In this document: positions 26,449 through 41,351 of the stretch, piece by piece
Numbering within the stretch: position 1 is the first letter of the stretch
Layout: each line of letters begins with the position of its first letter
Source of the DNA: Clostridia bacterium
GTDB lineage: Bacteria > Bacillota > Clostridia > UMGS1883
Assembly: GCA_051866635.1 (NCBI GenBank)
Contig: JBJDXJ010000038.1
Location: 146,372 to 210,371 of the forward strand
DNA: 64,000 nt
Direction of reading: 5' to 3'
Notes under the pieces: generated by a model
Database searches by the model: none
Told to the model about the DNA's origin: nothing
Seen by the model: the letters and a program-made list of their open reading frames with translations, nothing else
Made by a program: the position numbers and the translations under genes

Positions 26449-26578
26449 AAAAAAGGCAGTACAACACTTCTGGAATGGCTAAATGACGAAATTGACCGTT
26501 CATGAAGTTCATAAGAAATTCTGAGAATAAAGAAGGAAAAAATATTTATATTCTTGCCCATGCTTATCAAAGCAAGGT
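26449..26578 (+). pseudogene. Fused remnants of binding-protein 3' part and nadA 5' part
   Basis: 26449-26495 resembles 24135-24180; 26493-26578 resembles 24362-24450. Confidence 0.7.
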
Positions 26579-27226
26579 AAATTTGTTTTTTTCAAACCTG
26601 ATAAAACCTTCATCACGCATTTTGCACAGCTCTTTTGACATTGCACTTCTATCTACGGACAAAAAATCCGCAAGCTGCTGGCGGTTGAAGGGAATAGTAA
26701 AACTATTGCTTTTTTGTCTGTTTGCTTCTTCGGAAAGGTAAGATATAAGTTTTTCTCTTGTTGAACGTTTTGACATATGCCCCAGCTTTCTTACCAGTTT
26801 TCTGTTTTTTTCGGATATTTCAAAAAACAGATTTTGTACAACTGCGGAATGAAATCTGCAAGCGGATGGACAGGTTGTCAATATTTTATTAATATCAAGG
26901 AAAAGCACTGTACAGTCATCAGATGCAATAACATCATTTAAAAGTGTGCAGCTTTCAGCTGCGGCGTACGCTTCGCCGAACAGCTCGCCTGCACCTACAA
27001 TATTTATAATACTTAAATTACCCCAGTAATCCTCTCTTTGAATTAGAAGAGAGCCTTCCGCCAAAAGGGTGATATGGCTTATATGGTCGCCTTGCCTGAA
27101 CACATATTCACCTTTCTTATAATGGCACATCTTTGCTCCGAGGCAGTTCAGCATTGTCAGGATTTCATCTTCACTTATTCCTAAAAACAGTTTTGTATGT
27201 TTTAATATTGGGATATATTTTTTCAT
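26567..27226 (-). CDS. Crp/Fnr-family regulator (HcpR-like)
   Basis: cNMP-binding fold (GELFGE) and HTH RQQLADFLSVDRSAMS; start MKKYIP with RBS gaggt. Confidence 0.9.
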   Translation of the reverse strand: MKKYIPILKHTKLFLGISEDEILTMLNCLGAKMCHYKKGEYVFRQGDHISHITLLAEGSLLIQREDYWGNLSIINIVGAGELFGEAYAAAESCTLLNDVIASDDCTVLFLDINKILTTCPSACRFHSAVVQNLFFEISEKNRKLVRKLGHMSKRSTREKLISYLSEEANRQKSNSFTIPFNRQQLADFLSVDRSAMSKELCKMRDEGFIRFEKNKFTLL

Positions 27227-27313
27227 AAAGACCTCATTTCGTTGCAAAAACAACAGACTTGTTTTATTTATTGTAATATAATTGTGTCATAAAAACAACA
27301 GGAGGACACAAAA

Positions 27314-28006
27314 ATGATAAGAAAAATAATAAGAATTGATGAATCAAGGTGCAACGGATGCGGTGCGTGTGCTTTAGCCTGCCATGAAGGTGCAATTGAA
27401 ATGATAAACGGTAAAGCTAAACTGACCAGGGAGGATTACTGCGATGGGCTTGGCGACTGCCTACCTGCTTGTCCGAAAAATGCTATAAGCTTTGAAGAAA
27501 GAGAAACCCCTCAATACGATGAAGCGGCAGTTAAAAAAGCTCAAATGCAAAAGAAGGATGCGACTTTGCCCTGCGGATGCCCGGGAACACAGTCAAAAGC
27601 CATAGTCCGCAAGGAGAAATGCATAGAAAATAAATCCGTGGAAAGTGAGCTTTGTCAGTGGCCGGTACAAATAAAGCTGGTGCCTGTAAACGCACCTTAT
27701 TTTGAAAATGCAAATCTTTTGATTGCGGCAGACTGCACCGCCTATGCTTACGGAAATTTTCATTATGAATTTATAAGAAACCATATAACCCTCATTGGAT
27801 GCCCAAAACTTGACGAGGGAGACTATACCGAGAAATTGACAGAGATTATTTCAAACAATGAAGTTAAAAGTGTGACTGTTGTCCGCATGGAGGTACCCTG
27901 TTGCGGCGGAATAGAAAATGCGGCAAAAAATGCAATTAAAGAAAGCGGCAAATTTATACCCTGGAGAGTTGTTACAATTTCCACAGACGGAAGGATAATA
28001 GATTAA
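27314..28006 (+). CDS. 4Fe-4S dicluster protein
   Basis: CNGCGACALAC, CDGLGDCLPACP, GCPG, QWPVQ, GCPKLD, MEVPCC. Confidence 0.9.
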   Translation: MIRKIIRIDESRCNGCGACALACHEGAIEMINGKAKLTREDYCDGLGDCLPACPKNAISFEERETPQYDEAAVKKAQMQKKDATLPCGCPGTQSKAIVRKEKCIENKSVESELCQWPVQIKLVPVNAPYFENANLLIAADCTAYAYGNFHYEFIRNHITLIGCPKLDEGDYTEKLTEIISNNEVKSVTVVRMEVPCCGGIENAAKNAIKESGKFIPWRVVTISTDGRIID

Positions 28007-28210
28007 TATAAAGGTGCGATGCCCCCTGTAAGTTGGATTTATTAATTCTGATTTACGGGGGGCATTATATGTGTTATGGTGCTGCACGACAGGCAGACAA
28101 AATATTTATGGAAACATAAGCCCGCTTATAAAGCCGAGAAAAAGATGAATTCTCTCTTGAATTTAACAGAAACGTGCAATAAAGGTAAGTATATTTACAA
28201 TTTATAAATA

Positions 28211-28250
28211 AAAAATGCCTTGTAACCGTAAAAAGTTGCAGGGCATTTTT
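28211..28250. terminator. Bidirectional terminator
   Basis: aaaaatgccttgtaac..gttgcagggcattttt. Confidence 0.7.
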
Positions 28251-28337
28251 ATGCATTCAGGTATAATTCAATTCATAATCAATGGAAATAAACACTTTAT
28301 CTGATATAGTTACAATACAAGTTTGCAAACTTATTAA

Positions 28338-28363
28338 GTCCGTAAACTAAATATTTTCGGACA
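28338..28363 (+). repeat. Left inverted repeat of invertible segment
   Basis: gtccgtaaactaaatattttcggaca, exact reverse complement of 29662-29687. Confidence 0.95.
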
Positions 28364-28434
28364 GCGTAAAAATCTGCATTATTACTGAATTTTACGGCTT
28401 TTTATATCTAATGACAGCATAAGATGTTAAAATG

Positions 28435-28463
28435 ATTGTAGCACACAAACTGCGGTAAATCAA
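28435..28463 (-). promoter_or_regulatory. Outward-facing sigmaA promoter inside invertible segment
   Basis: Minus strand TTGATT-17 bp-(TG)cTACAAT. Confidence 0.7.
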
Positions 28464-28550
28464 GTGTTTTGTCAAGTTTCTCCATTTTGTACAAAAATAT
28501 TTTGTTTTATTCTCAGTCAGTATTGTAGTCAGATGAAAGGAAGTGTTGTT

Positions 28551-29603
28551 ATGGCTCGCAGAGGTGAAAATATTTATAAGCGTAAAGACGGTCGTTACGA
28601 GGGCAGATATATAAAATATTACGATATGTCCGGCAAGGCTGTTTACGGATATATTTATTCAAAAAGCTATATGGAAATCAAAGAAAGACTCGCAAAGTGT
28701 AAAACGGAAAGACAATCAGAAATTAAGGATTCAAACACTTTGCTTTGCGATTGGCTTGAAATATGGATGATGTCGCAAGGACTTTTAAAACCTACTACCA
28801 AAAGAGTTTATAAAAGCCATATTAAAAACCATATCAATCCGCAAATTGGTAATATTCCGCTAAAAAAGCTAAATGCCGAAATTTTGCAGAATTTTATAAA
28901 CAGTTTGGAGTTGTCTGCTTCAACGATAAAAACAGTATTCAGTACATTAAAATCTGCATTATCAGAAGCAGAAGATAAAGGATTTATAACAAATGTATGG
29001 AGTAAGGTTAAATTACCCAAAAAGGATATATCAATAGTTCGGGTTTTATCGGCAGCAGAACAGCAACGGCTTGAAAAAGTATTAATAGACGGTGTCGATA
29101 TGGGTATTTTAATTTGTTTATATACAGGGCTTCGTATAGGGGAATTGTGTGCGTTAAAATGGTCGGATATTAACTTTGAATTGTCAATACTGACTGTAAA
29201 CGGAACACAGGCAAGAACAGAAAACGGTGTTGAAATTATATCTCCAAAGAGCAAGAGCTCAAAAAGAGAAATTCCTATACCGCCGTTTCTTCTTGATAAA
29301 ATCAAGTCACTACCACGAAAAGGTAAGTTTGTTGTTTCAAAATACGGAAAGCCTTTTGATGTCCGCACTTACAGGAGGCATTTCAAAAAAATATTGAAAA
29401 AAGCGAATTTGCCGGATATAAAATTTCATTCCCTGAGGCACACATTTTCAACCCGTGCTTTAGAGGTGGGTATGGATTATAAAACCTTGTCGGAAATTCT
29501 CGGTCATTCATCGGTAGCAATTACTCTTGATTTGTATGCACATTCTCTTAAAGAGCATAAGAAAAATCAGATGTGCAAGCTCGTCGAAATTTATAATTCA
29601 TAG
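28551..29603 (+). CDS. Tyrosine recombinase/invertase
   Basis: Start MARRGENIYKRKDGR with RBS aaaggaag; TGLRIGE, PKS, HSLRH, LGH, LYAH catalytic set intact. Confidence 0.95.
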   Translation: MARRGENIYKRKDGRYEGRYIKYYDMSGKAVYGYIYSKSYMEIKERLAKCKTERQSEIKDSNTLLCDWLEIWMMSQGLLKPTTKRVYKSHIKNHINPQIGNIPLKKLNAEILQNFINSLELSASTIKTVFSTLKSALSEAEDKGFITNVWSKVKLPKKDISIVRVLSAAEQQRLEKVLIDGVDMGILICLYTGLRIGELCALKWSDINFELSILTVNGTQARTENGVEIISPKSKSSKREIPIPPFLLDKIKSLPRKGKFVVSKYGKPFDVRTYRRHFKKILKKANLPDIKFHSLRHTFSTRALEVGMDYKTLSEILGHSSVAITLDLYAHSLKEHKKNQMCKLVEIYNS

Positions 29604-29620
29604 TCAAAGTTTATAGTCAG

Positions 29621-29662
29621 AAAGGCGTAAAGGCTGATTAAATCACAGTCTTTACGCTTTTT
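29621..29662 (+). terminator. Terminator between recombinase and right inverted repeat
   Basis: aaaggcgtaaaggctg..cagtctttacgcttttt. Confidence 0.7.
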
Positions 29663-29687
29663 GTCCGAAAATATTTAGTTTACGGAC
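29662..29687 (-). repeat. Right inverted repeat of invertible segment
   Basis: tgtccgaaaatatttagtttacggac. Confidence 0.95.
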
Positions 29688-29877
29688 AAATGGTAAATAA
29701 ATCAAGTTATTATTACTATTTTTATAGTTATTATGTGTTATTGACGGAAAATTTAATACAAGAAGGTGAGAAAATGTTTTTAAACAAAGAGTTAAAAGTG
29801 TTAATGCCACCTTAGTTATGAGGGAATTAACTTTAATATCAAAATACAATAATGATTAACTGAAAGGATTTACAAAT

Positions 29878-32832
29878 ATGAAAAAAATAATTACAGCATT
29901 GTTGGCATTTGTAATGCTCGTGTCTAGTACAGTGTCATTTGCAGCAAATGAAATGTTTTTTTACAAAGACGAAACAAAAGTATATTTCAATAATGAATTT
30001 GTTGATATTTTAGATGGAGAAGGTATAGCACCAACAGTCAAAGATGGTGTATTTTATGTGCCAATCAGACCATTCGTAGAATTGAAAAATGGATATATTA
30101 CATGGAAAGTTAATGGCGAAAAACTCCAAGCCGATTTTGCAGTAGGAAGTTATTATACAATCCAGGATAATTCTAATGAAATAGTAGAATATACAGGTGT
30201 AAATGAAACATTAAGTGCAGAAGTTTTTCTAAACACAAATTACAATCGTTTAATGGTTCCCGCAGATACATTTGAGAAGTTAGGATACAAAATAATTCAA
30301 GGCGATGACTATTTAGGAATATTCTCAATATCCAAACATGAAGATGTTCAAGCTATTGCATTTGATAGGAATTCTACCATTTCCGAAGCTACTGTTAAAT
30401 ATACTCTTTTAAATGATAAGGGTGATGTATTTATAAGAGATTTATCAAATACTGGTGATATTGTTAATACAGTAGTTGGTGGTTTGGGAGCTTCTATTGA
30501 CATTACAGTAAATAATGGTAGTGTGGACAGTGCAACAATTTCATTTGCATATGATGAATCAAAATTAGGCACAACAAACGAGTCTGATTTAAAAATTGTA
30601 TGGTATAATGAAATTTTAGGACGCATGGAATTGTTGGAAAATTCTGTTGTAGACACAAACAATAATGTTGTATTAGTTCAGTCATCTCATTTTAGTAAAT
30701 ACAGTGTAGTAGATTCCAAACAATGGTATGCAGCATGGGCAGAAACACAGTTAATAAAAAGAGATGATACTAAAGGAAATGGCTTATTTAATGTTAATTT
30801 AGTATTGGATACATCAGGAAGTATGAACGGTTCAGTTGCTTTATTAAAAGAAACCGTTATTAAGTTTATAGACGGATTAAATGATAATGATATTATAAAT
30901 GTAATAACTTTCTCAAACGGTGCAGAAACATTAATAGACAGCAATTCAAAATCAAATTCAAACTATGAAAATATTATCAACCGTATATCTGCAAACGGTG
31001 GAACAGATATGATTTCCGGATTAAATGAGGTTCTTTATGGCAATATACTTATAGAGCCTGTAAATCCCACAGAAGAAGAAAAACTACAATATGAACAACA
31101 CAAGCAAATTCAAGATTTGAAAAACAATGCAACGACTGTTACTATTTTATTATCCGACGGTGTGCCGGATTCAGATAATAATACTGATGATATCATATCA
31201 TCATGCAAAACTATTGCATTAAGAGGAAAATTTATTTCTGTAGCATTAGGCTCAGGTTCTCATTCGGCACTAATGGAAAAAATAGCAAAGGAAACAAACG
31301 GATTATATAAATATATAAGTGATTCTAATGGATTATTAGAAATGTTTATGCAAATAAGTGGTGAAGTTATTGGTCTTGAGCAGGATACAGATGGTGATGG
31401 AATCCCCGATTTAATTGAGACAACAGGCATGAGAGATCAAGCCGGAAATATATTTACAACTGATCCAAACAAAGCTGACACAGATGGAGATATGTTGTCT
31501 GATGGTGATGAAATGGGTGTGTTTGTAAATGAAAATGGAGGTTATTTTATAAGGGAATCTAATCCTAATATATTTACTACGTTCCAAAGTATTGCACAAT
31601 TAGGAGATAATTCAATAGATGCTTTGTTCTCAGACTATAATGGTAATTTTAAGATTAAGTTAAATATGAATGTATTGTCAGAGAAAATTATGGAAAAAAC
31701 TGTATTTTCATCTTCTGGAAATGCTGTAAACCATTCAGCAATGGAAACTCTTTATGCAAGTGTACAAAACTTGAAGATTTCTTTTTCAAAATTACCAGAT
31801 TGCATAGAAAATCCTCAATTAGCACCATATCAGGTTGCTGTTGCTGAATCAGGACATTCATATAATTATATCGTCGTTGCAAAATGCAAAAATGGTGGAG
31901 TAAATTGTAAAAACAATCATACAATAGAAATTACTATTAGTGGAGATAACCTTGATCCAGTAGTAGTTAAACAAGATGTTGATTTAAATCAGATTATGTT
32001 AGAACAAGCAAGAAAAGATGTTTCTTCAATTCAAACTGAAATATCAAATCAAACCAAACGAAAAGCAACTGAGTATGTAACATCGGAAAATACAAAGGTA
32101 TACAATAGCTCTAACGAATTGCTGAATAGTATAAATTTAATTCAAACCAATATACCAAATGATGCACAAATTGCTATAAAAAATGTAATTATGAATTTGG
32201 TTGCTGAGAAAAAGGGATTGGAAAAAATTAGTATAAATCCATCACAGCAAATTAAGGATTGTGCCGAATTAATCGGTATGGTAAATGATGAAACATTTTA
32301 TCCTGTAATTAACGGAGTTCAATACGAAGTACATATCACAGGAAGTTTTATTCCTAAAATTAATTTATTTTCGTTGCCCTATATAAACGGTACTTGCAAT
32401 GTGAAAAATAAACCTAATGAAAAATATAGTTTTTCATATATTCCTACCGACAGGGATGAAGTTAATAAATTTTTAGACGCATACAATAAGGCATTGGATG
32501 ATTCAAAACAAGAGGCTATTGAAGAAATAGATAAACAAGGAAAAGCAGCAATAAAATCTATTTTAAATGAAACCTTTAAGGCGTGGGGCGTTACTGAAAT
32601 AATGAATAAGTTAGAAGCAGATGCACTAAAGGAAGTTGGAATTTATGAGGAAGTGCAGATGTATAAAACAGGTTTAGACCTATTAGAAAAAGTTTCGTCT
32701 ACTGAAGGGTTTTCACCTAAAGATGCTGTTGATACTTGTAAAGAATATAAGGATTATGGAACGAAAAGCAGTATAATAAGTGATTGGGCAACAGATAAAA
32801 TAACAGATTTAATAAAATTTCTTTCAAAATAA
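29878..32832 (+). CDS. Secreted/surface protein with stalk (Cu-amine-oxidase N-like) domain, vWA domain and Ca-binding DTDGDG repeats
   Basis: Signal peptide; FYVPIR; LVLDTSGSM MIDAS, GGT, LLSDG; DTDGDGIPD and DTDGDMLSD. Confidence 0.8.
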   Translation: MKKIITALLAFVMLVSSTVSFAANEMFFYKDETKVYFNNEFVDILDGEGIAPTVKDGVFYVPIRPFVELKNGYITWKVNGEKLQADFAVGSYYTIQDNSNEIVEYTGVNETLSAEVFLNTNYNRLMVPADTFEKLGYKIIQGDDYLGIFSISKHEDVQAIAFDRNSTISEATVKYTLLNDKGDVFIRDLSNTGDIVNTVVGGLGASIDITVNNGSVDSATISFAYDESKLGTTNESDLKIVWYNEILGRMELLENSVVDTNNNVVLVQSSHFSKYSVVDSKQWYAAWAETQLIKRDDTKGNGLFNVNLVLDTSGSMNGSVALLKETVIKFIDGLNDNDIINVITFSNGAETLIDSNSKSNSNYENIINRISANGGTDMISGLNEVLYGNILIEPVNPTEEEKLQYEQHKQIQDLKNNATTVTILLSDGVPDSDNNTDDIISSCKTIALRGKFISVALGSGSHSALMEKIAKETNGLYKYISDSNGLLEMFMQISGEVIGLEQDTDGDGIPDLIETTGMRDQAGNIFTTDPNKADTDGDMLSDGDEMGVFVNENGGYFIRESNPNIFTTFQSIAQLGDNSIDALFSDYNGNFKIKLNMNVLSEKIMEKTVFSSSGNAVNHSAMETLYASVQNLKISFSKLPDCIENPQLAPYQVAVAESGHSYNYIVVAKCKNGGVNCKNNHTIEITISGDNLDPVVVKQDVDLNQIMLEQARKDVSSIQTEISNQTKRKATEYVTSENTKVYNSSNELLNSINLIQTNIPNDAQIAIKNVIMNLVAEKKGLEKISINPSQQIKDCAELIGMVNDETFYPVINGVQYEVHITGSFIPKINLFSLPYINGTCNVKNKPNEKYSFSYIPTDRDEVNKFLDAYNKALDDSKQEAIEEIDKQGKAAIKSILNETFKAWGVTEIMNKLEADALKEVGIYEEVQMYKTGLDLLEKVSSTEGFSPKDAVDTCKEYKDYGTKSSIISDWATDKITDLIKFLSK

Positions 32833-32894
32833 GCAATAATGTATATAGGATCAAAATAGGATACAATCCAAAATTTGGTGTAAAGTCCATACAA

Positions 32895-33059
32895 GAGACT
32901 GTAAAAAAAGTCTCTAAAGAAATAAGTTAAGACCATTTGGGACAGTCCCCCTTATGGCAAATTGGGAGACAATTTGCCAAAGAAACCTTGCGAGGTTTTG
33001 TTGGGACAGTCCCGAAATGGTCTTTTTGTTATCTCAGTGTTGACTTTTTTTACAGCCCC
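32895..33059. mobile_element. About 165-bp MITE-like structured repeat, copy 2
   Basis: 18-bp TIR gagactgtaaaaaaagtc / gactttttttacagcccc. Confidence 0.75.
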
Positions 33060-33232
33060 TTAATTATGCCAAGGAAATTTTAAGAAACATGAAAGGTCCT
33101 GATGTAAAGAATTTTGATGACCTGAAACTTGTCACCAAAAAAGACTTTAAAGACAAGTTTTGGATAATATGCAGTCGCCTGCTTTTAGATTTTATTTTAA
33201 AATGCTGTATAATAAAAGATAAGGGAGTGTGA

Positions 33233-36200
33233 ATGTATATGAAAAAAGTGGCGTTTATATTAGCTTTAATAATGTTGTTATCTTTTTGCCCGTGCATAAG
33301 CTTTGCTGATACGGAATATAAGCTCCGCAACGTTAATGACGGGGCATATACGGAAGTCAGTATGAGCGAGTATCAGACATATGAAACGGAGCACTTTCAG
33401 ATTTTTTGGGATACTGACGGCGCAAACAGTGCTAAGGTGACGGACACGTTTTTGAAAAAGTGCGAAACTGTACTGGAAAACTGCTGGGATTTATATATTG
33501 ACAAAATGGGAATGGAACCCACAAGCACGTCTGTAAATTGGGATGGAGATAAAATAACCCAGTACAAAACAAACGTAATTTTAATGGGTACAGGCGTTAC
33601 GCATTATGATTTAGGTGCAAATGACTGGGGCGCTTACGGCTCGGTTGATTCCTGCGGTTACCCGTATTTTATGTGCTGCTTAGCGGCAATGGATGCACCT
33701 ACGGTTGTGGCACATGAGTTTGGTCACGCAGTGCATTACGCCCAGGGCGACAACGCATGGAAGGATAATATTTTCCTCGGCCCTTGGTTTGAGGCGGTGG
33801 CAAACTGGTTTGCAGAGCAGTATATTTACGAATATATGCCCGGTACGACACAAATGTCCCATCTGTATCTGAGGGAAACATCTCTTACAAAAATGAACGG
33901 CAGAGGCTATTACGAAGCCTGGCCCATCCTTCAGTATTTAACGGAGGACCCCGACAACACGGAAGTATACGGCGAAAACTTTGTGCAGAAGCTCCTTAGC
34001 TATAACTCCGGCAGTACATCGACCCTTTTCTGGGAGGTGCTGGAGGCTTGTAACGGCAATTTAACAACTGCCGATACTGTTGGTATGTATGCTTCACACA
34101 TTGCCACAATGGATTTTAAAAATAAGGATTTATATAACCGCTATATAAATAACTTTTATAACGGTCATTATTTCTACTGGCAACAGCGATACACAATGCT
34201 TGAAAAGTTAGGCAAAGAGGCAAATACATATGCCGTGCCCTTTGAGAGAGCTCCTCAGGCGATGGGATATAATATTACGCCGCTTAACTTTACACCCGGC
34301 GAGGTAACGGTTAAGCTCAATGCTTTAACAGATGTTTACGGCGCAGACTGGAGAGCAAGACTTGTCAAGGAGTCAAACGGTGTGACAAGTTATTCAAACC
34401 TTTTCTCCGACGGCGAAGAGGTGACAATGAATGTGACAAGTGGGGATGAATTATACCTTTCCGTTGCGGCAACACCTTCCCTTGACACAATGCCCCGTCA
34501 TACTATTACAGGTTGGGCGGAGCACAGCAAGGAATCAAACTATCCTTATGAAAATAAAACACAGTACCCCTACAGCGTTACCCTTACAAATGCAACACCT
34601 ATGTCACGTCCCGTCTATAGCGGATTGAAACAGCATCCTAACGGTGGGGGATGGATTTCATATAACGCAAACGTGGCACCTACTGCATATGTTGGTCCCA
34701 ACGCGTTGGTGCTTGACCGTGCAACAGTAAGTGACAATGCGGTAATTGACGGTTACGCAATCGTTGCACAAAATGCAAAGGTAAGCGGCAATGCATATGT
34801 TGGCGACACGGCAGTGCTTTTTGACCGTGCCCAGGTCAGCGGAAATGCAAGAGTGATTGAAAACGCCTGCCTCTATGTTGACTATAAGGTTTCCGGCAAT
34901 GCTGTTGTAAAGGGACAGGCGTTAGGATTATACAATGGTACAGCAACCGGAGAAACAATCCTCTACGGCGACTGGTTTGAGGATGAGGGCCACGATTTGA
35001 ACGGCGGAAGATTTTCGGGCTGGCACTCTATTTCAACGGATGACAAGTATGCAACAAATAATGGCGACTATTATACACGCGACTATATAGCAGGTCTCCG
35101 CACAAGATATGAATTTAATTCTAACTTAAAAGACACCTACGGTTATACCGACCTTTACAGCGTGGGAAACCCTGTGGTGGATAACGATACCGTGACCTTT
35201 GACGGCAAAAACTATGCAGTTCTTGACGATTCTGTCCTTTATTATGACAATATGAAAATTGCCCTCAAAGCAAAAGGCGAGGGCGAAGTTTTAAATATCG
35301 GCGACTGTATTGTACTTACTTTGAATGACAAAGCCATATTGAATGTTGGCGGTAAAACAGTTTCTGTTAATGCCAATGACGGTTGGAACGATATTGAAAT
35401 CGACTTTAACGATGGTGCTGTAACACTCTCCGTAAACGGCAGTGAAAAGAGCCAAAATAGTACTGTCACACCTCTTGAAGCAACACGAAGCGGTGAAAAC
35501 TATATAGGCAAAGGCTTTACGGGCAGTGTGGACTATATGCGTATTTTTGATTTGGCAACCTATGTTGAAAGTGACAGCATAGATTATACCAGACTGTACC
35601 TTGTATTAAATCCTGAAAATAAGAATGCTTTTTATGGGTGGAGGACAGACAGTTCAAACGTAACCTTTAATAAAGGGCTACATATTGCGGGTAATACCAC
35701 GGCAACTGTTACAAGTCCTTCCTGCAAGGCAAACAAGTTTATACTTGAATTTTCACCCTCGGGCGGCAGTACATACCCCGACCACGGCATTATGGACACA
35801 GACGGAGATGTTTTATTCGCACACCGTTATGCAACCGATGCAAAAACGGTATATGTTGGAAGAGGCGAGGTTAATTCCTACGTAAGAGGCAACAGCTATA
35901 TTACGGATGCTGCCGCACAGCAGAGGCTTACTAATTTTGTTGCCGAAAAGATTGAGAATGCAAGTGCAAGAAGTGACCGTGGTGCGGTGAATTATGCTGA
36001 AGGCGATACGGTACGCATAATCGCAGAAAACACAATATGGACAGAGAAAATGGCTGAAAAATTTGCAAACAGTGAAAACTATACAGACAATCTTTCTGCT
36101 ATGACAGATGGAGAAGATGTTTACACTGTAACATACTACTTGATTGACGATGGTTTAACAATGAAGGTCAGCGAAAGTGTATACAAGGGCCATTTTAAAG

Positions 36201-36559
36201 GCTTTGGAGGGTTTAAGGCTGCAGGCGGTACAAAAGGTGTAACGGTTTCGTACAATGACTTGAGGATTTATACAGACAATGCTGAGCCCAAGATAATATG
36301 TGAAGATATGATGATTAAGTCTGAAGGCTTTGAAGGCGAAGCTTTAGCCGTTTTTGCAGTGTATGATGAAAGATTTGATGTTTACACCGAAAAAGTAAAG
36401 GGAGATTTTGAAATACCTATCCCCGAAGGCTTTGAAAACAGCAAGTTTATGCTTTTTACAAATCTTGAAGATTTATATCCTTTAGTAAAATCATTTGATG
36501 TGCAGGGGGAAAATATTTATACTGCTTCTGCAGGACAGAATGAGGATACGTTTTTTTGA
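33233..36559 (+). CDS. Secreted zinc-metallopeptidase-like protein (DUF6055-like) with beta-helix and LamG-like domains
   Basis: Signal peptide; AHEFGH..WFEAVANW; HPNGGG followed by hexapeptide repeats. Confidence 0.7.
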   Translation: MYMKKVAFILALIMLLSFCPCISFADTEYKLRNVNDGAYTEVSMSEYQTYETEHFQIFWDTDGANSAKVTDTFLKKCETVLENCWDLYIDKMGMEPTSTSVNWDGDKITQYKTNVILMGTGVTHYDLGANDWGAYGSVDSCGYPYFMCCLAAMDAPTVVAHEFGHAVHYAQGDNAWKDNIFLGPWFEAVANWFAEQYIYEYMPGTTQMSHLYLRETSLTKMNGRGYYEAWPILQYLTEDPDNTEVYGENFVQKLLSYNSGSTSTLFWEVLEACNGNLTTADTVGMYASHIATMDFKNKDLYNRYINNFYNGHYFYWQQRYTMLEKLGKEANTYAVPFERAPQAMGYNITPLNFTPGEVTVKLNALTDVYGADWRARLVKESNGVTSYSNLFSDGEEVTMNVTSGDELYLSVAATPSLDTMPRHTITGWAEHSKESNYPYENKTQYPYSVTLTNATPMSRPVYSGLKQHPNGGGWISYNANVAPTAYVGPNALVLDRATVSDNAVIDGYAIVAQNAKVSGNAYVGDTAVLFDRAQVSGNARVIENACLYVDYKVSGNAVVKGQALGLYNGTATGETILYGDWFEDEGHDLNGGRFSGWHSISTDDKYATNNGDYYTRDYIAGLRTRYEFNSNLKDTYGYTDLYSVGNPVVDNDTVTFDGKNYAVLDDSVLYYDNMKIALKAKGEGEVLNIGDCIVLTLNDKAILNVGGKTVSVNANDGWNDIEIDFNDGAVTLSVNGSEKSQNSTVTPLEATRSGENYIGKGFTGSVDYMRIFDLATYVESDSIDYTRLYLVLNPENKNAFYGWRTDSSNVTFNKGLHIAGNTTATVTSPSCKANKFILEFSPSGGSTYPDHGIMDTDGDVLFAHRYATDAKTVYVGRGEVNSYVRGNSYITDAAAQQRLTNFVAEKIENASARSDRGAVNYAEGDTVRIIAENTIWTEKMAEKFANSENYTDNLSAMTDGEDVYTVTYYLIDDGLTMKVSESVYKGHFKGFGGFKAAGGTKGVTVSYNDLRIYTDNAEPKIICEDMMIKSEGFEGEALAVFAVYDERFDVYTEKVKGDFEIPIPEGFENSKFMLFTNLEDLYPLVKSFDVQGENIYTASAGQNEDTFF

Positions 36560-36692
36560 TATTACTCCAAGGACTCCGTTGCGGACTGTAAGCGTCAGCT
36601 TACATCCCGGTTTTGGTATTGTGAAAATCCGTTTAAATCAGTATGAATAAAAAAGTAAAACGCAGACCGACAAAAACGGTCTGCGTTTAAGT

Positions 36693-36765
36693 TTAGCGGA
36701 AGTTCATTCCATTAATTTTGGTGGGCTTGCCTTGGTAGGTGACACGGCGTAAGGCTTCACCGATA
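36693..36765 (-). repeat. cotJC 3'-end copy A with diverged core
   Basis: Translates IGEALRRVTYQGKPTKINGMNFR*; hairpin at 36659-36688; arm ttactc follows on + strand. Confidence 0.85.
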
Positions 36766-36975
36766 TTACTCTTTAAAACTAATTGAATTTTGGTCGGTAA
36801 TTAAGGTGTAAAATGGAATTTGTGAGTTTTGTAATAGGGGAAACTGCGTTTAATATATAGTTATTTTAGCATGTAGAAAAGGGGTCGTTGTTTTGATAAA
36901 ACACCTCTGCATAAAAACTATTGAATAATTAATAAAATACAGGTATAATCAAAACAAGAGATTTATCGTAAAAAG

Positions 36976-37581
36976 GTGATGGGAATGGCTGAAGTTTATA
37001 AATTTAAAGTAAAATTAAGAGAGCCGGAAGATAAAATCTGGCGTGATATTGAGCTTACCTCCACATCAAGTGTGGCGAAATTAGGGTATGCCATTCTTGC
37101 CTCTTTCGAGGCAGAGGGAATTCATTTGTTTTGCATAAAATTCAAAGGAGACAGATATGAAATCGTTAACGATGATTTTTATGATAAATTGGGAATAAAA
37201 ACGATGGATCCGATTTTTATAAAGTTATCCTCTTTAAAAATGGAAATTGGCGATACAATGGAACTGGAATATGATTACGGTGTAGGCTGGTTTTTTGATA
37301 TTGAGCTTATTTGTGTAAAACCGATGGCAAAAGGAACGGGAAATTACTATCCTTACGTTACAGATGGTGCGGGTTTGGGAATTATAGAAGGTCTTTATGC
37401 CGATGAATGGGCAGAGTACATAAAAACGGTTGATGAAACGGGCGTGCCTCCGATTTACTATGATGTGTTCGATAAAGAAGTTACTTGGGACTATCGGAAA
37501 TTTGATATAGATATAACCAATGCTTTGTTGAAAGGGACTGTTAAGCGAATGAAAAGAATCTACGAGGACCTTTTTGAGTAA
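36976..37581 (+). CDS. pRiA4b ORF3 / IS1096 TnpR-like protein
   Basis: YKFKVKL..IWRDI, HLF, LEYDYG..W.FDI, YP.VTDGAG.GIIE. Confidence 0.8.
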   Translation: MMGMAEVYKFKVKLREPEDKIWRDIELTSTSSVAKLGYAILASFEAEGIHLFCIKFKGDRYEIVNDDFYDKLGIKTMDPIFIKLSSLKMEIGDTMELEYDYGVGWFFDIELICVKPMAKGTGNYYPYVTDGAGLGIIEGLYADEWAEYIKTVDETGVPPIYYDVFDKEVTWDYRKFDIDITNALLKGTVKRMKRIYEDLFE

Positions 37582-37611
37582 TAACTGAAATAGTAGAGGA
37601 GAGATGGAAAA

Positions 37612-37668
37612 ATGGCAACAGAATTAGAAATGTTAGAGCGAGCAAAGATATATATGGAAAAGCTGGCA
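37612..37668 (+). pseudogene. 5' stub of the 39518-40084 gene
   Basis: MATELEMLERAKIYMEKLA then jumps to terminator. Confidence 0.8.
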
Positions 37669-37709
37669 TACAAAAAGACAACGAGACCGAATTTTGGTCT
37701 CGTTTAAGT

Positions 37710-37782
37710 TTAGCGGAAGTTCATTCCGTTGATTTTTACAGGTTTTCCCAGGTCAGTGATGCGGCGGAGCGCTTCACCGAAA
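37710..37782 (-). repeat. cotJC 3'-end copy B with 17-bp core
   Basis: FGEALRRITDLGKPVKINGMNFR*; core ggagcgcttcaccgaaa 37766-37782; hairpin 37680-37704. Confidence 0.9.
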
Positions 37783-37969
37783 TTACTCTTTTAAAAAAAT
37801 CTCTGAAAGCATTGGGGAGACTGGATTTGAGGCGTGTTAACAGTTTTGGGATTTTGGAAAGGTTTGAAATTTTATAATAAAAGCCTTGATATTCTTGTAT
37901 TATTTGATTATAATAATAATTATTATTAGAGAGTTATTAGATAATTATTAGAAAGATGAGGGATAACAC

Positions 37970-39277
37970 ATGCTTGCAGAAGGTAAGGGTATTGAACTAA
38001 AAAGAGAATATGTAGATGATATTAAAAAGACGGTTATAGCTTTTGCTAATTGTGATGGAGGAAATATTTATATTGGAGTTAATAATGACGGAACTGTATG
38101 TGGAATAGAAGATACTGATGAAATTATGTTAAAGGTTACTAATGCAATTCGTGATGCTATTCGGCCTGATGTTACGATGTTTGTGGACTGCAGGGCAGAA
38201 CAGTTAGACGAGAAGGCTGTTTTGTGCATTTCAGTTCAGCGAGGTACTGCGAGACCCTACTATCTTCAAGGAAAAGGGATAAGACCCGAAGGTGTGTTTG
38301 TAAGACAGGGAGCATCTACAGTTCCGGCAACAGAATCTGCAATTTTAAATATGATAAAAGATACCAGTGGCGACAGCTATGAAAAAGCAAGAAGCATTAA
38401 CCAGGAATTGACTTTTGAAAAAACCACGGATTTCTTTAAAAAGAGAAACATAGAATTTGGCAATGCACAAATGAGAACATTGCATTTTATTGGAGAAGAT
38501 GGTATGTACACAAATCTTGCATTTCTTCTTTCTGATCAGTGTTCACATAATGTCAAGCTGGCGGTATTTGAAGGTAGTGTAAAAACCGTGTTCAAGGACA
38601 GAAAAGAGTTGTCGGGATCACTTCTTTCACAATTAGAAGAAGCGTATGAATATATTGAGCGTTACAATCGCACGAGGGCGGAATTTTCCGGACTTGATAG
38701 GATAGATAGCAGAGATTATCCTACGGAAGCTGTCAGAGAAGCCCTTCTTAATGCAATTGTGCATAGAGATTATGCATTCAGCGGACCTACATTGATAAGT
38801 ATTTTTGACGACAGAATTGAGTTTGTGACAATTGGCGGCTTAGTAAAAGGGATAAGTCTTGATGATGTTTTTCTGGGAGTATCTGTTTTGAGAAATCAAA
38901 ATCTTGCCAATGTTTTTTATAGGCTGAACTTAATTGAAGCATATGGTACAGGTGTTTTAAAAATTAACGGCAGTTATGCTGACTGCAATATGAAACCGGT
39001 GATAGAAGCAACAGATAATGCATTTAAAATAACTCTCCCGAACTTAAACTATAATACCGATTTAAAGCCAAGAAAAACAAAGGCTACAAATAAAAGAGAA
39101 ACTATTATATTGGAATACTGCAAAGAAAATAACGGAATAACCCGTCATGAGATTCAGGAACTTTTAGATGTATCACAGGCAACGGCTATCCTTATCATTA
39201 AGGAAATGATAAAAAACAAGATGCTTATTAAGGTCGGTCAGGGTAGAAATGTGAGCTATATTACTAATGAAAGATAG
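37970..39277 (+). CDS. AlbA_2/Schlafen DNA-binding + RecG-C-like ATPase + wHTH protein
   Basis: IELKRE..IAFANCDGGNIYIGV; REALLNAIVHRDY; IEAYGTG. Confidence 0.85.
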   Translation: MLAEGKGIELKREYVDDIKKTVIAFANCDGGNIYIGVNNDGTVCGIEDTDEIMLKVTNAIRDAIRPDVTMFVDCRAEQLDEKAVLCISVQRGTARPYYLQGKGIRPEGVFVRQGASTVPATESAILNMIKDTSGDSYEKARSINQELTFEKTTDFFKKRNIEFGNAQMRTLHFIGEDGMYTNLAFLLSDQCSHNVKLAVFEGSVKTVFKDRKELSGSLLSQLEEAYEYIERYNRTRAEFSGLDRIDSRDYPTEAVREALLNAIVHRDYAFSGPTLISIFDDRIEFVTIGGLVKGISLDDVFLGVSVLRNQNLANVFYRLNLIEAYGTGVLKINGSYADCNMKPVIEATDNAFKITLPNLNYNTDLKPRKTKATNKRETIILEYCKENNGITRHEIQELLDVSQATAILIIKEMIKNKMLIKVGQGRNVSYITNER

Positions 39278-39517
39278 GTGATAAAATAAGCTCTATTTCA
39301 TTGGTAAGCGGACAATCAGCAAAGTTAAAGGCTGTGGCAGCAATTATGACGTTTGTATAGATTTTACACTCTTCCCTGACGAAGCAGAAGAATATATATG
39401 AGAAGTAGAAAAAAGCGAAGAAGGAAGATAATTTGTGTCAATTAATTAATTCTCGTCCTGAGTGTATGAAAAATATATTATTGAGAAAATAATCTATACT
39501 GAAAGAAGTGAAGATAC

Positions 39518-40084
39518 GTGGCAACAGAATTAGAAATGTTAGAGCGAGCAAAGATGTATATGGAAAAGCTGGCAAACGGAATTAATCCCATTGATGATAC
39601 GGAAGTTAAAGATGATGACTGTATTAACAATGTGAGGCTGTCCAGGTGCTTTTTCTATGTGGCAGATGTGCTTGGAAAGATTATAGCAAACGGAGGAACA
39701 GTGCCGGTTAGGAAGAAAGCCGGTACTATGCCTTTTTCGATAACAGATGAACAACTTAAAAATTATGAGTTTTCAGATAATCCTATTGTACTTAGTGAAA
39801 TTGCAAAAAGATTAAATGCATTGAAAACTGACACAAATATGAAAAATATTACATATAACCATCTGGCGGATTGGCTTATGAGCGTTAATATGTTAGAGTA
39901 TGCAACAAAAAGTAACGGCACTACTACCAAATATCCAACCGAGGCGGGGAAGCGTATGGGAATGACAGTTGAGAAAAGGCAAAGTGTGCGAGGGGAATAT
40001 TTGGTTGTGGTATATAATAAACAGGCACAGCAGTTTATTATTGATAATATGGATGCTGTTTTGGACAGCATAAGTAAGAAATAA
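39518..40084 (+). CDS. Conserved hypothetical protein
   Basis: 188-aa ORF with RBS; paralogues at 37612 and 52660. Confidence 0.8.
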   Translation: MATELEMLERAKMYMEKLANGINPIDDTEVKDDDCINNVRLSRCFFYVADVLGKIIANGGTVPVRKKAGTMPFSITDEQLKNYEFSDNPIVLSEIAKRLNALKTDTNMKNITYNHLADWLMSVNMLEYATKSNGTTTKYPTEAGKRMGMTVEKRQSVRGEYLVVVYNKQAQQFIIDNMDAVLDSISKK

Positions 40085-40117
40085 GACAACGAGACCGAAT
40101 TTCGGTCTCGTTTAAGT

Positions 40118-40190
40118 TTATCGGAAGTTCATTCCGTTTGTCTTGACGGGTTTGCCTAAATCGGTTACACGACGGAGCGCTTCACCGAAA
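40118..40190 (-). repeat. cotJC 3'-end copy C with 17-bp core
   Basis: FGEALRRVTDLGKPVKTNGMNFR*; core 40174-40190; hairpin 40088-40112. Confidence 0.9.
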
Positions 40191-40523
40191 TTACTCTTTT
40201 AAAAAAATTTCTGAAACGCCCGGATAGACTTGGGCTCATCGAGGTTTTATTTTTTTTGTAAAAATTGGAATAAAAGTGGAGAAATCGGATGATGTGCAGA
40301 TAACTTTCCTCACATCCGGCTTACGTACAGGAAACTGTATGTGAGTCTTTTTATATATAATCGGAGTATATTTATTCTTTAATAAAAACCTTCAAAATAT
40401 TAGAAATTAAAGATTTCGTATGTTTATATGGTCATTCGTCCTGAATTATTGATTTAAATAAAGGCACATGCTATAATAGCTTTGATGGTATAATATACCA
40501 TATTAAAGGGAAGTGATCTAAAG

Positions 40524-41333
40524 ATGAGAAATCAGGAAGCGGAGTTCATTCGCTTAACACAGCAATGCTGGCAGCATTACTGGCAGCTTGATATGGATTT
40601 TATGCTTAGCTATTGCGATGAAAAGGTTACATGGATAGGTGCCGAACAAAATGAATTTATAAGAGGCATAGAAAATGTGAAACAAAATTTTTCCGAGCTT
40701 CTTCTTCATCTTCGCACCTGCCATCTGCTTAATCAGGAATTCTACGCACAGCAATGCGTAAAAAATACCTGCACCGTTATAGGGCGGTATTTGGTTGCGA
40801 CTGACGAAACAAACGATTACTTCTTGCAGGCACAGCAAAGATGCACATTCGTATGGGAAGTTAAAAACAAAGAATATAAAATAATTCATATTCATGTGTC
40901 AAACCCCATGGGGGAGTTAAAGGTTGCAAAGGGGGAACGCTTTGTAAATACCGTAGGATATATGGCAAACAAATATCTTGAAGAGAACTTCAAGAAAAGA
41001 TTTCTTGGAAAACGAATCACTACAACGGACGTAAACGGTGCGGTTCGGTTTATACATTTATCTGAAATAATGTATGTAATAGCACACCGCAACGATTTGG
41101 TTATTGTAACTATCGGCGGAAACATAGAGGTAAAAATGAACATTTCTGAATTTATGGAGCTGGCGGACAGCAAATTTCTGAAGGTTCACCGTAGCTACGC
41201 AATAAATATAGACTTTATGGTGAAGCTGGAAAGGTACGCAGTTACAATGAAAAACGGCGAGCAAATACCCATTCCCGTAAAAAAATATAACGGCTTGCGT
41301 GACGAGATAATTAAAATGAATAACTGCAAATAA
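40524..41333 (+). CDS. SnoaL/NTF2-like sensor + LytTR DNA-binding regulator
   Basis: WIG..E, RCTFVW..HIHVSNP; FLKVHRSYAIN. Confidence 0.85.
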   Translation: MRNQEAEFIRLTQQCWQHYWQLDMDFMLSYCDEKVTWIGAEQNEFIRGIENVKQNFSELLLHLRTCHLLNQEFYAQQCVKNTCTVIGRYLVATDETNDYFLQAQQRCTFVWEVKNKEYKIIHIHVSNPMGELKVAKGERFVNTVGYMANKYLEENFKKRFLGKRITTTDVNGAVRFIHLSEIMYVIAHRNDLVIVTIGGNIEVKMNISEFMELADSKFLKVHRSYAINIDFMVKLERYAVTMKNGEQIPIPVKKYNGLRDEIIKMNNCK

Positions 41334-41351
41334 AAGAAAGGAAAGATAACA

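Follow-up and report, generated by a model that had tools for sequence, protein, structure and literature searches.

A probable self-inverting promoter cassette with a Tn1549/Tn916 integrase-like recombinase in a Clostridia bacterium

The window, i.e., the whole stretch of DNA analysed here, comprises 64,000 nucleotides (nt) of the genome of a Clostridia bacterium (GTDB lineage Bacteria; Bacillota; Clostridia; UMGS1883; assembly GCA_051866635.1, contig JBJDXJ010000038.1, positions 146,372 to 210,371). At positions 28338-29687 of the window, perfect inverted repeats enclose a segment of about 1.35 kb with a tyrosine recombinase gene, an outward promoter and a terminator hairpin. This segment is likely to be a self-contained invertible promoter switch that is currently OFF for the adjacent gene of a secreted vWA protein, a reading to which we give a probability of about 75 %. 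The anatomy of the segment is conserved in its relatives, its outward promoter is the signal for which the relatives are enriched, and both orientations occur in related groups. The segment would flip at the window locus as well, and its outward promoter would be active and would control the vWA gene, with a possible role for motifs in the flanks.

In the proposed mechanism, the encoded recombinase, which resembles the integrases of Tn1549 and Tn916, would bind to two identical, inverted core sites, and strand exchange within their asymmetric 7-nt spacer would flip the whole segment, its own gene included. One strong outward promoter, termed P_out, would be divergent from the recombinase gene. 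In the OFF state it would direct transcription leftward to a two-way terminator, and the hairpin that follows the recombinase gene, ahead of the right repeat, would keep the vWA gene silent. Upon inversion, P_out would come to lie at about 29562-29590, some 100 nt inside the right repeat, and would read rightward into the vWA gene, which by arithmetic would then have a leader of about 280 nt. Motifs that are conserved within the cassette and in the adjoining 70 nt or so on each side probably serve as arm-type or accessory sites and could make the two flip directions unequal. The ON/OFF logic had been proposed in a preliminary description of the sequence; it is backed by the enrichment of P_out, by opposite orientations in four groups of relatives and by the gap of only about 20 nt between repeat and target gene in one of them.

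Recombination sites and the cassette family

An inverted-repeat scan of positions 27000-31500 returned one outstanding pair, with arms of 26 nt each that are 100 % complementary, as the preliminary description had stated, and with 1298 nt between them. Each site reads GTCCGTAAA-CTAAATA-TTTTCGGAC. Of the earlier view that two inverted 9-bp arms surround an asymmetric 7-bp spacer, the spacer stands; the arms are not a perfect inverted pair, as they agree at 8 of the 9 positions. A 25-mer of the core site, searched with up to three mismatches, occurs twice in the whole 2.33-Mb, 63-contig genome, both times at the cassette ends, and a reversed control pattern gave no matches.

Relatives of the recombinase were collected by a protein-guided search of species-representative genomes, which yielded copies at 72-94 % identity in metagenome-assembled genomes (MAGs) from rumen, chicken and human gut. 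A profile built from 21 homologues matched at least 590 stretches in the same type of genomes, 80 of which were kept for analysis. Checking homologues for flanking inverted repeats had been suggested beforehand, and the outcome was positive: 76 of the 87 family loci with room on both sides carry a perfect inverted repeat of at least 14 nt, with one copy lying about 185 nt ahead of the start codon and the other 50-90 nt past the stop codon. The same layout was present at a further 20 of 28 loci of a chemotaxis-linked subfamily. As a control, 44 more distant integrase homologues (24-37 % identity) were inspected in the same zones, and none had a repeat longer than 12 nt. Rather than a one-off, the window cassette is part of a large family from Clostridia of the gut and rumen. 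All structural elements of the model in the preliminary description are present, and all except the terminator in the left flank are conserved in relatives.

Within a locus the two repeat copies are identical, and between loci they differ: by our own reading, there are 10 distinct sequences in the 12 closest unique cassettes. Loci L013 and L014 differ in one spacer base, and both copies at each locus carry that locus's own base. The arms vary in a compensating manner, with GTCCGTAAA/TTTACGGAC and GTCCTTAAA/TTTAAGGAC types, and in the close subfamily they form perfect dyads of 8-10 nt around a 7-nt spacer of the form C-N4-TA. Identity within a locus combined with divergence between loci is what would be expected from selection for, or conversion by, site-specific recombination. 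The 218-nt perfect inverted repeat flanking the recombinase in the complete genome of Oscillibacter valericigenes Sjm18-20 (AP012044.1, locus L245) is exceptionally long when set beside the family median of 24 nt. Other cultured strains in which family members were found are Sporobacter termitidis DSM 10068 (L243), Faecalispora sporosphaeroides DSM 1294 (L244) and Clostridium merdae Marseille-P2953 (L246).

Some relatives are found on contigs of the length of the cassette itself. One of these (L064, 1441 nt) starts and ends exactly at its own 30-nt repeats, and by our own count the longest contig measures 1279-1468 nt in 22 of 120 listed homologue clusters. Such breaks are to be expected where a sample contains both orientations or several contexts side by side, and we take them as an indirect hint. 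Two genomes were seen to carry two cassettes each. In G009, the cassettes L143 (G009:C50) and L154 (G009:C16) differ in their interiors and share the core repeat TGACCCAAAACTTAATCTTTTGGG, so that one recombinase could act on four sites and cause larger rearrangements. The second genome carries L144 and L155 (G005:C8).

Outward promoter and terminators

The leftward promoter named in the preliminary description was recovered at 28463 to 28435, and its support is family-wide conservation and enrichment. In the assembled orientation, it would read leftward through the left repeat. In an alignment of the region from the left repeat to the ATG, the invariant columns are those of the minus-strand -35 (AAAnCAAG on the plus strand) and of the extended -10, and the spacer between them is variable. 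Among 69 unique cassettes, P_out reaches a score of at least 12/15 in 57 and the full 15/15 (a perfect TTGACA-17-TGnTATAAT) in 7; the other strand of the same region reaches 12/15 in 3 of the 69, and shuffled sequences average 9.84 (Wilcoxon p = 1.5e-12). The element is perfect in this sense in the group of relatives with 55-60 % identity. The median distance from its -10 to the outer edge of the repeat is 91 nt. It is the only promoter signal enriched in the 69 cassettes, and across the family no promoter enrichment was found in either flank in either direction. A second extended -10, on the recombinase strand at 28425-28433, overlaps P_out back to back and is a candidate promoter of the recombinase gene.

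The hairpin just before the right repeat had been called a terminator in the preliminary description, and folding agrees with that call (Table 1). It is predicted to insulate the target gene from transcription of the recombinase gene. Hairpins with differing stem sequences are located at the same place in L013, L015, L016, L018, L019, L162 and L143; in L020, L021, L160 and L161 the hairpin is weak or absent. The claim that P_out presently fires into a terminator at 28211-28250 fits with the finding of a hairpin followed by a U-run on the minus strand too. A simple terminator scan called neither of these two hairpins, and both were found by folding. RNAalifold predicted 0 pairs for a MAFFT alignment of the terminator region, in which the loops are misaligned, and each sequence was therefore folded by itself. 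Between the right repeat and the vWA gene (29688-29877), there is no plus-strand promoter-like site scoring at least 9/12, in line with the earlier remark that this gene lacks a good separate promoter.

Orientation of the cassette in relatives

To compare orientations, the loci were oriented on the recombinase, the flanks were read outward and compared by tblastx, and comparison of whole loci served as confirmation. Homologous flanks were found on the same side in 89 locus pairs and on opposite sides, at equal offset, in 16 pairs that fall into four groups. In the whole-locus comparisons the cassette is collinear and the flank inverted. The occurrence of opposite orientations beside orthologous flanking genes in four groups of more distant relatives indicates that the design does invert.

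The group that weighs most is that of the helicases. Only about 20 nt separate the repeat from the start of the ResIII+HA gene of this group, which leaves no room for a separate promoter in between. That gene is on the P_out side in L203, L214 and L192, and in L236 it is on the side of the 3' end of the recombinase gene. In the NlpC/P60 group, a distance of about 50 nt lies between the repeat and the end of the gene, which is found on the P_out side in L152, L157 and L174 and on the opposite side in L176; the recombinases of L152 and L176 are 81 % and their flanking genes 84 % identical. An STAND-type NTPase gene is found on the P_out side in L193, L188, L198, L204 and L269 and on the other side in L206. 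The fourth group has an HD-CheW-MCP operon, on the P_out side in L189 and on the other side in L231, L209, L225, L241, L251 and L252.

The recombinase and its possible arm-type sites

The presence of an intact recombinase gene between the repeats, as previously described, was confirmed by a 350-aa open reading frame (ORF) with a full catalytic set: R195, K233, H293, R296, H319 and Y329 are all present and are invariant across the 21 aligned homologues. The longest ORF begins at GTG 28464; ATG 28551 is preferred because a ribosome-binding site (RBS) is present, GAAAGGAAG, and because this start agrees with those of the homologues. The Pfam domains are of the tyrosine recombinase type only, namely Phage_integrase (E 3e-28) and a SAM-like domain, and none belongs to a serine recombinase. 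In a profile search of the PDB, the structures of the Tn1549 integrase 6emy, 6en0 and 6emz came out on top (E 2e-25), and the same three were the best matches in Foldseek (TM 0.65-0.74), followed by full-length lambda Int. The gene is present in a single copy in the genome, with the next paralogue at 30 % identity.

The AlphaFold model has a mean pLDDT of 84. Its N-terminus consists of strands at residues 8-10, 16-24 and 30-37 and a helix at 40-52, with pLDDT values of 67-83. According to the available part of PMC8138268, a fold of three strands and one helix is the arm-binding domain of the IntTn916 subgroup and is tied to functions of mobile-element integrases. The N-terminus is accordingly modelled as a predicted arm-binding domain; as residues 1-70 have no sequence match in Pfam or PDB, the assignment depends on the predicted fold. 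An arm-binding domain would be unusual in an invertase. The earlier term "domesticated invertase" is apt for an enzyme of this kind.

Given the predicted domain, two copies of the motif GTCA-N8/9-TAGTCA are plausible arm-type sites, and the recombinase may bind to them. The motif has only these two matches in the 64 kb, both inside the cassette, with 0.27 expected; two matches were reached in 3 of 100 shuffles. Outside the cassette, an inverted half-motif in the right flank and a degenerate copy in the left flank were read by eye.

Conserved flanks

About 70 nt outside the left repeat (from 28268) and about 70-80 nt outside the right repeat are kept among loci that otherwise differ, which brings the functional unit nearer to 1.5 kb. 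The left flank holds a TCAA..TCAA motif resembling the arm-like motif inside the cassette and a weak promoter-like sequence, TAAACA-16-TACAAT (28289-28316, score 11/15), that reads into the cassette. It may be an accessory recombinase-binding region, an inward promoter or both. An inward promoter as part of the family's design was considered and rejected, the family mean score being 9.53 vs 9.28 in shuffled sequences. In the right flank, TTGACGG corresponds to the CCGTCAA half of the arm-like motif read on the opposite strand, and this flank is a putative accessory site or leader.

Table 1 Features of the cassette and its surroundings (window positions)
Feature	Position	Strand	Basis
Two-way terminator hairpin left of the module	28211..28250	.	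Free energy (dG) -20.9 on plus and -14.5 on minus strand; z -4.5 and -3.2; U-runs on both strands
Conserved left flank	28268..28337	+	88 % identity over 68 nt to L013 and L015; kept in L016, L018 and L019
Left inverted repeat, core-type recombination site	28338..28363	.	9-nt arms around spacer CTAAATA
Extended -10 on recombinase strand, TGTTAAAAT	28425..28433	+	Columns ATGnTAnAAT invariant in 9/9 close relatives
Predicted outward promoter P_out: -35 TTGATT, 17-nt spacer, TGc, -10 TACAAT	28435..28463	-	Scan and family conservation
Arm-type-like motif, GTCA-N8-TAGTCA	28516..28531	+	Directly before the RBS; conserved in relatives
Tyrosine recombinase, 350 aa, Tn1549/Tn916-Int-like	28551..29603	+	Pfam, catalytic residues, profile and fold searches
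Second arm-type-like motif, GTCA-N9-TAGTCA	29603..29619	+	Overlaps stop codon; kept in 10/10 aligned relatives
Predicted intrinsic terminator hairpin	~29620..29661	+	dG -21.9, z -5.3; A-tract before, U-tract after
Right inverted repeat, core-type site	29662..29687	.	Repeat scan and genome pattern search
Conserved right flank	29688..29760	+	Two AGTTATTAT repeats and TTGACGG
Putative target, 984-aa secreted vWA protein	29878..32832	+	Signal peptide, Cu_amine_oxidN1-like domain, vWA with DTSGS, TSP3-like Asp-rich repeats

Weighing the switch against other explanations

A number of observations weigh against an invertible switch at the window locus. The promoter and both terminators are predictions. 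A generic promoter scan of the region was at chance, with 10 sites vs 10.3 expected in shuffled sequences, and for that reason the reality of P_out depends on its conservation in the family. Not all members of the family have a terminator ahead of the right repeat (median z -0.5 over 77 loci), and 11 of the 87 family loci lack a perfect 14-nt repeat. The orientation differences are between species and could be old fixed events instead of ongoing switching; in the comparison of L152 and L176, the similarity of the second flank ends after about 60 nt, so that only one flank is clearly orthologous beyond that distance. No flipped copy was found of the window cassette or of its own subfamily: in all nine loci with the conserved left flank (the window and eight others from a search of species-representative genomes with a left-flank-plus-repeat pattern, six of them already aligned and two more), P_out points away from the target. 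Either OFF is strongly favoured in gut populations, or the subfamily flips rarely. In a metagenome collection, the closest relative was only 44 % identical, too distant for a comparison of orientations within the subfamily. Two public DNA runs, each with a fraction of 0.05 of the sequence words and with only relatives that are about 90 % alike, showed no strand-changing joint among the pieces listed; contigs were interrupted close to both repeats and led on into two different right flanks. The conserved flanks, including the weak inward promoter-like site, stay unexplained by the switch model.

The single orientation of these nine loci bears on two of the three alternatives that were considered. 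The switch might work by a logic other than the one proposed: the assembled orientation could be the productive one, through read-through from the promoter-like site in the left flank or from the recombinase gene, or the main output could be control of the recombinase itself, by sense vs antisense transcription, with the vWA gene on a weak promoter of its own. The conserved site in the left flank that reads into the cassette would suit such a scheme, as would the 70-80 nt of right flank conserved without known reason. However, a strong hairpin with a U-run separates the recombinase gene from the right repeat, the score of the site in the left flank is no higher than 11/15, and the one promoter signal with family-wide enrichment is P_out, with none for inward promoters; this explanation is considered unlikely. 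To a similar extent it is doubtful that the family inverts but that the subfamily, or the window copy, has become a relic that no longer flips usefully, with its promoter parked away from the vWA gene. In L015 (L015:3983-5050), an 84 % identical relative, the recombinase frame is indeed split into ORFs of 156 and 161 aa with its 27-nt repeats still perfect, which may represent a locked switch or an assembly error. The recombinase of the window is nevertheless intact with all catalytic residues kept, the perfection of repeat pairs that diverge between loci points to continued selection or conversion, and the share of close homologues on cassette-length contigs also argues against locking.

It is very improbable that the cassette is an insertion sequence-like mobile element, with the repeats as its terminal inverted repeats and a recombinase that moves it rather than flips it. 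Its patchy occurrence (none of nine same-genus genomes, vs 72-94 % identical copies in other lineages), the TnpV and large serine recombinase genes upstream of relatives and the cassette-length contigs could be read in that way. The hallmarks of insertion sequences and transposons, viz., several copies, target-site duplications and unrelated flanks, were not found, though: the window genome has one copy, the bases adjoining the two repeats in the window do not repeat each other, so that no target-site duplication is seen, and sequence outside the repeats is conserved across loci. Moreover, the cassette is always intergenic at a fixed distance from the start of a gene, its orientation changes in place beside orthologous genes, and it is established knowledge that identical inverted core sites with a tyrosine recombinase give inversion. 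An invertible promoter switch thus remains the preferred reading.

Target genes and genomic setting

The genes beyond the repeat at the 3' side of the recombinase gene in the close subfamily encode BspA-type leucine-rich repeat (LRR) proteins with or without SLH, Flg_new or Cu_amine_oxidN1 domains, cohesin/dockerin proteins and an SLH-M4 peptidase. Family-wide, the candidate targets comprise genes of surface proteins and of defence-like helicases and NTPases as well as chemotaxis operons. Two loci at 39-42 % identity (L024 and L025) precede a Tad-pilus-type locus and a gene for an FtsK/SpoIIIE-FHA ATPase, which we take to be EssC-like (type VII secretion). In the distant subfamilies (L203, L214, L192 and L236; L193, L188, L198, L204 and L206), ResIII helicases with five to six HA domains, STAND/NPHP3_N-type NTPases and a dynamin-like GTPase were observed. 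As outward genes start on both sides in L198 and L206, a cassette could toggle between two outputs. Upstream of close relatives, there is often a TnpV or large serine recombinase gene, which indicates a mobile-element neighbourhood.

Synteny with five same-genus genomes ends at 28006, past a ferredoxin-like gene (27314-28006) and just ahead of the module; the sequence beyond differs in each of them, which makes this a hypervariable locus. The switch heads a variable, accessory region. The nine same-genus genomes from which the recombinase is absent have a completeness of 59-96 %. In the taxonomic family, homologues are present in 11 of 63 genomes at 39-61 % identity, and in the order 12 of 86 genomes have a homologue at E <=1e-90, the best of them 74 % identical. 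Since the copies with 72-94 % identity are mostly outside the order, horizontal spread is indicated. The vWA gene has a match in 1 of the 63 family genomes, a partial one at 39 %.

Further observations concern the surroundings of the module. On its left, a 46-aa ORF (28067-28208) has a terminator hairpin on either side, at 28019-28060 and at 28211-28250; the match of this ORF to the C-terminus of TnpV was not significant (E 0.028), and that identification was dropped. Downstream of the vWA gene (33233-39277) are genes for a 1108-aa secreted DUF6055/LamG protein, a PRiA4_ORF3 protein and a protein with Schlafen AlbA_2 and HATPase_c_4 domains, all of which look accessory or defence-like, and a promoter-like TTTAGA-18-TATAAT (33184-33213) is located ahead of the DUF6055 gene. 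A plus-strand ORF of 2734 aa occupies 43753-51957.

Comparison with known invertible systems

The closest parallel in layout is the H segment of Salmonella (hin, hixL/hixR and the fljBA promoter; relatives Gin, Cin and Pin), in which a recombinase gene and an outward promoter are likewise inside the invertible segment and a flip links or unlinks the promoter and a surface-protein gene. Hin is a serine invertase that requires an enhancer and Fis. The enzyme of the window, in contrast, is an integrase-type tyrosine recombinase with sites made up of 9-nt arms and a 7-nt spacer. In the available part of PMC5903667, Hin is cited as an example of a recombinase within its own segment. The window cassette has a Hin-like layout with tyrosine chemistry; it would work like the Hin and Gin segments without being a member of that group.

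The short segments of fimS in Escherichia coli and of the promoter invertons of Bacteroidales are flipped by enzymes encoded outside the inverted DNA, simple tyrosine recombinases that are not known to have an arm-binding domain. RecV of Clostridioides difficile is likewise encoded outside and is not known to have such a domain. The window cassette differs from all of these in having its recombinase gene inside the segment and in the predicted presence of an arm-binding domain. What the systems would share is a tyrosine recombinase that flips a promoter segment and turns surface structures ON or OFF, as for FimB/FimE and, in the accessible text of PMC11892184, the invertons of gut Bacteroidales. 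The RecV switches of Clostridioides difficile (cwpV, flgB and others), as presented in the available part of PMC5903667, also combine a Clostridia host, a tyrosine recombinase and short invertible regions upstream of surface or motility genes; there, a single recombinase encoded elsewhere serves several sites, whereas the window cassette has its own enzyme and its own, genome-unique sites.

By sequence and fold, the Tn1549/Tn916 integrases (6emy, 6emz and 6en0) are the nearest solved relatives of the window recombinase. They excise and integrate conjugative transposons; in the window the sites are inverted, and the product would be an inversion. Instead of direct att sites and, as is usual, an Xis partner, the cassette has inverted sites and one copy per genome. 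No Xis-like ORF was noticed between the repeats in the ORF lists, and no conjugation genes were seen among the ORFs scanned beside the cassette (26567-28006 and 29878-43712).

A putative 844-bp segment at a fimbrial locus of Providencia stuartii, with imperfect repeats of 14 bp, encloses a recombinase ORF according to the part of PMC5903667 that is available. Like the window cassette, it is larger than a bare promoter, carries the recombinase gene inside and is adjacent to a surface-structure locus; it differs in its proteobacterial host, its size and its shorter, imperfect repeats, and no family or promoter analysis is given in that part of the source. Inversion signatures in the vicinity of HD-domain and chemotaxis genes are mentioned in the same part of PMC5903667 for C. 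thermocellum, A. propionicum and D. dehalogenans. These would fit the chemotaxis-linked subfamily; none of the three species is among the 79 loci returned for that subfamily. Full-text searches of the literature gave no description of recombinase-carrying promoter cassettes in Clostridia.

Concluding remarks

On a wider reading, held tentatively and at somewhat less than even confidence, the cassettes would be portable, self-contained phase-variation modules that make up a large family in Clostridia of the gut and rumen. Their enzyme would be a conjugative-transposon-type integrase with an arm-binding domain that was turned into an invertase and that is accompanied by its own sites, an outward promoter of consensus type and accessory sites in the flanks. 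The module of about 1.5 kb would have spread horizontally to positions before diverse genes, those of surface adhesins, cellulosome-type proteins, pilus and type VII secretion loci, defence-like helicases, STAND NTPases and chemotaxis operons. By analogy with attP x attB vs attL x attR recombination, the arm sites on both sides of each core may bias flipping and render its two directions unequal and regulable; if real, this inequality would account for the subfamily always being caught OFF.

A one-gene, self-contained flip switch is a ready engineering part for Gram-positive anaerobes. If the proposal is true, the cassette would also be an example of an integrase with an arm-binding domain that was recruited for inversion. 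Most mapping of phase variation in the gut has concerned Bacteroidales and relied on tools tuned to short promoter-only segments; in the survey of PMC11602134, as far as its available part goes, over 75 % of the inverton segments were shorter than 300 nt. Cassettes of 1.3-1.5 kb that enclose their own recombinase may therefore be under-sampled. If surface, defence and chemotaxis functions are indeed switched in this way in Oscillospiraceae, Ruminococcus and their relatives, much of the on/off heterogeneity of the dominant gut Firmicutes would have been missed.

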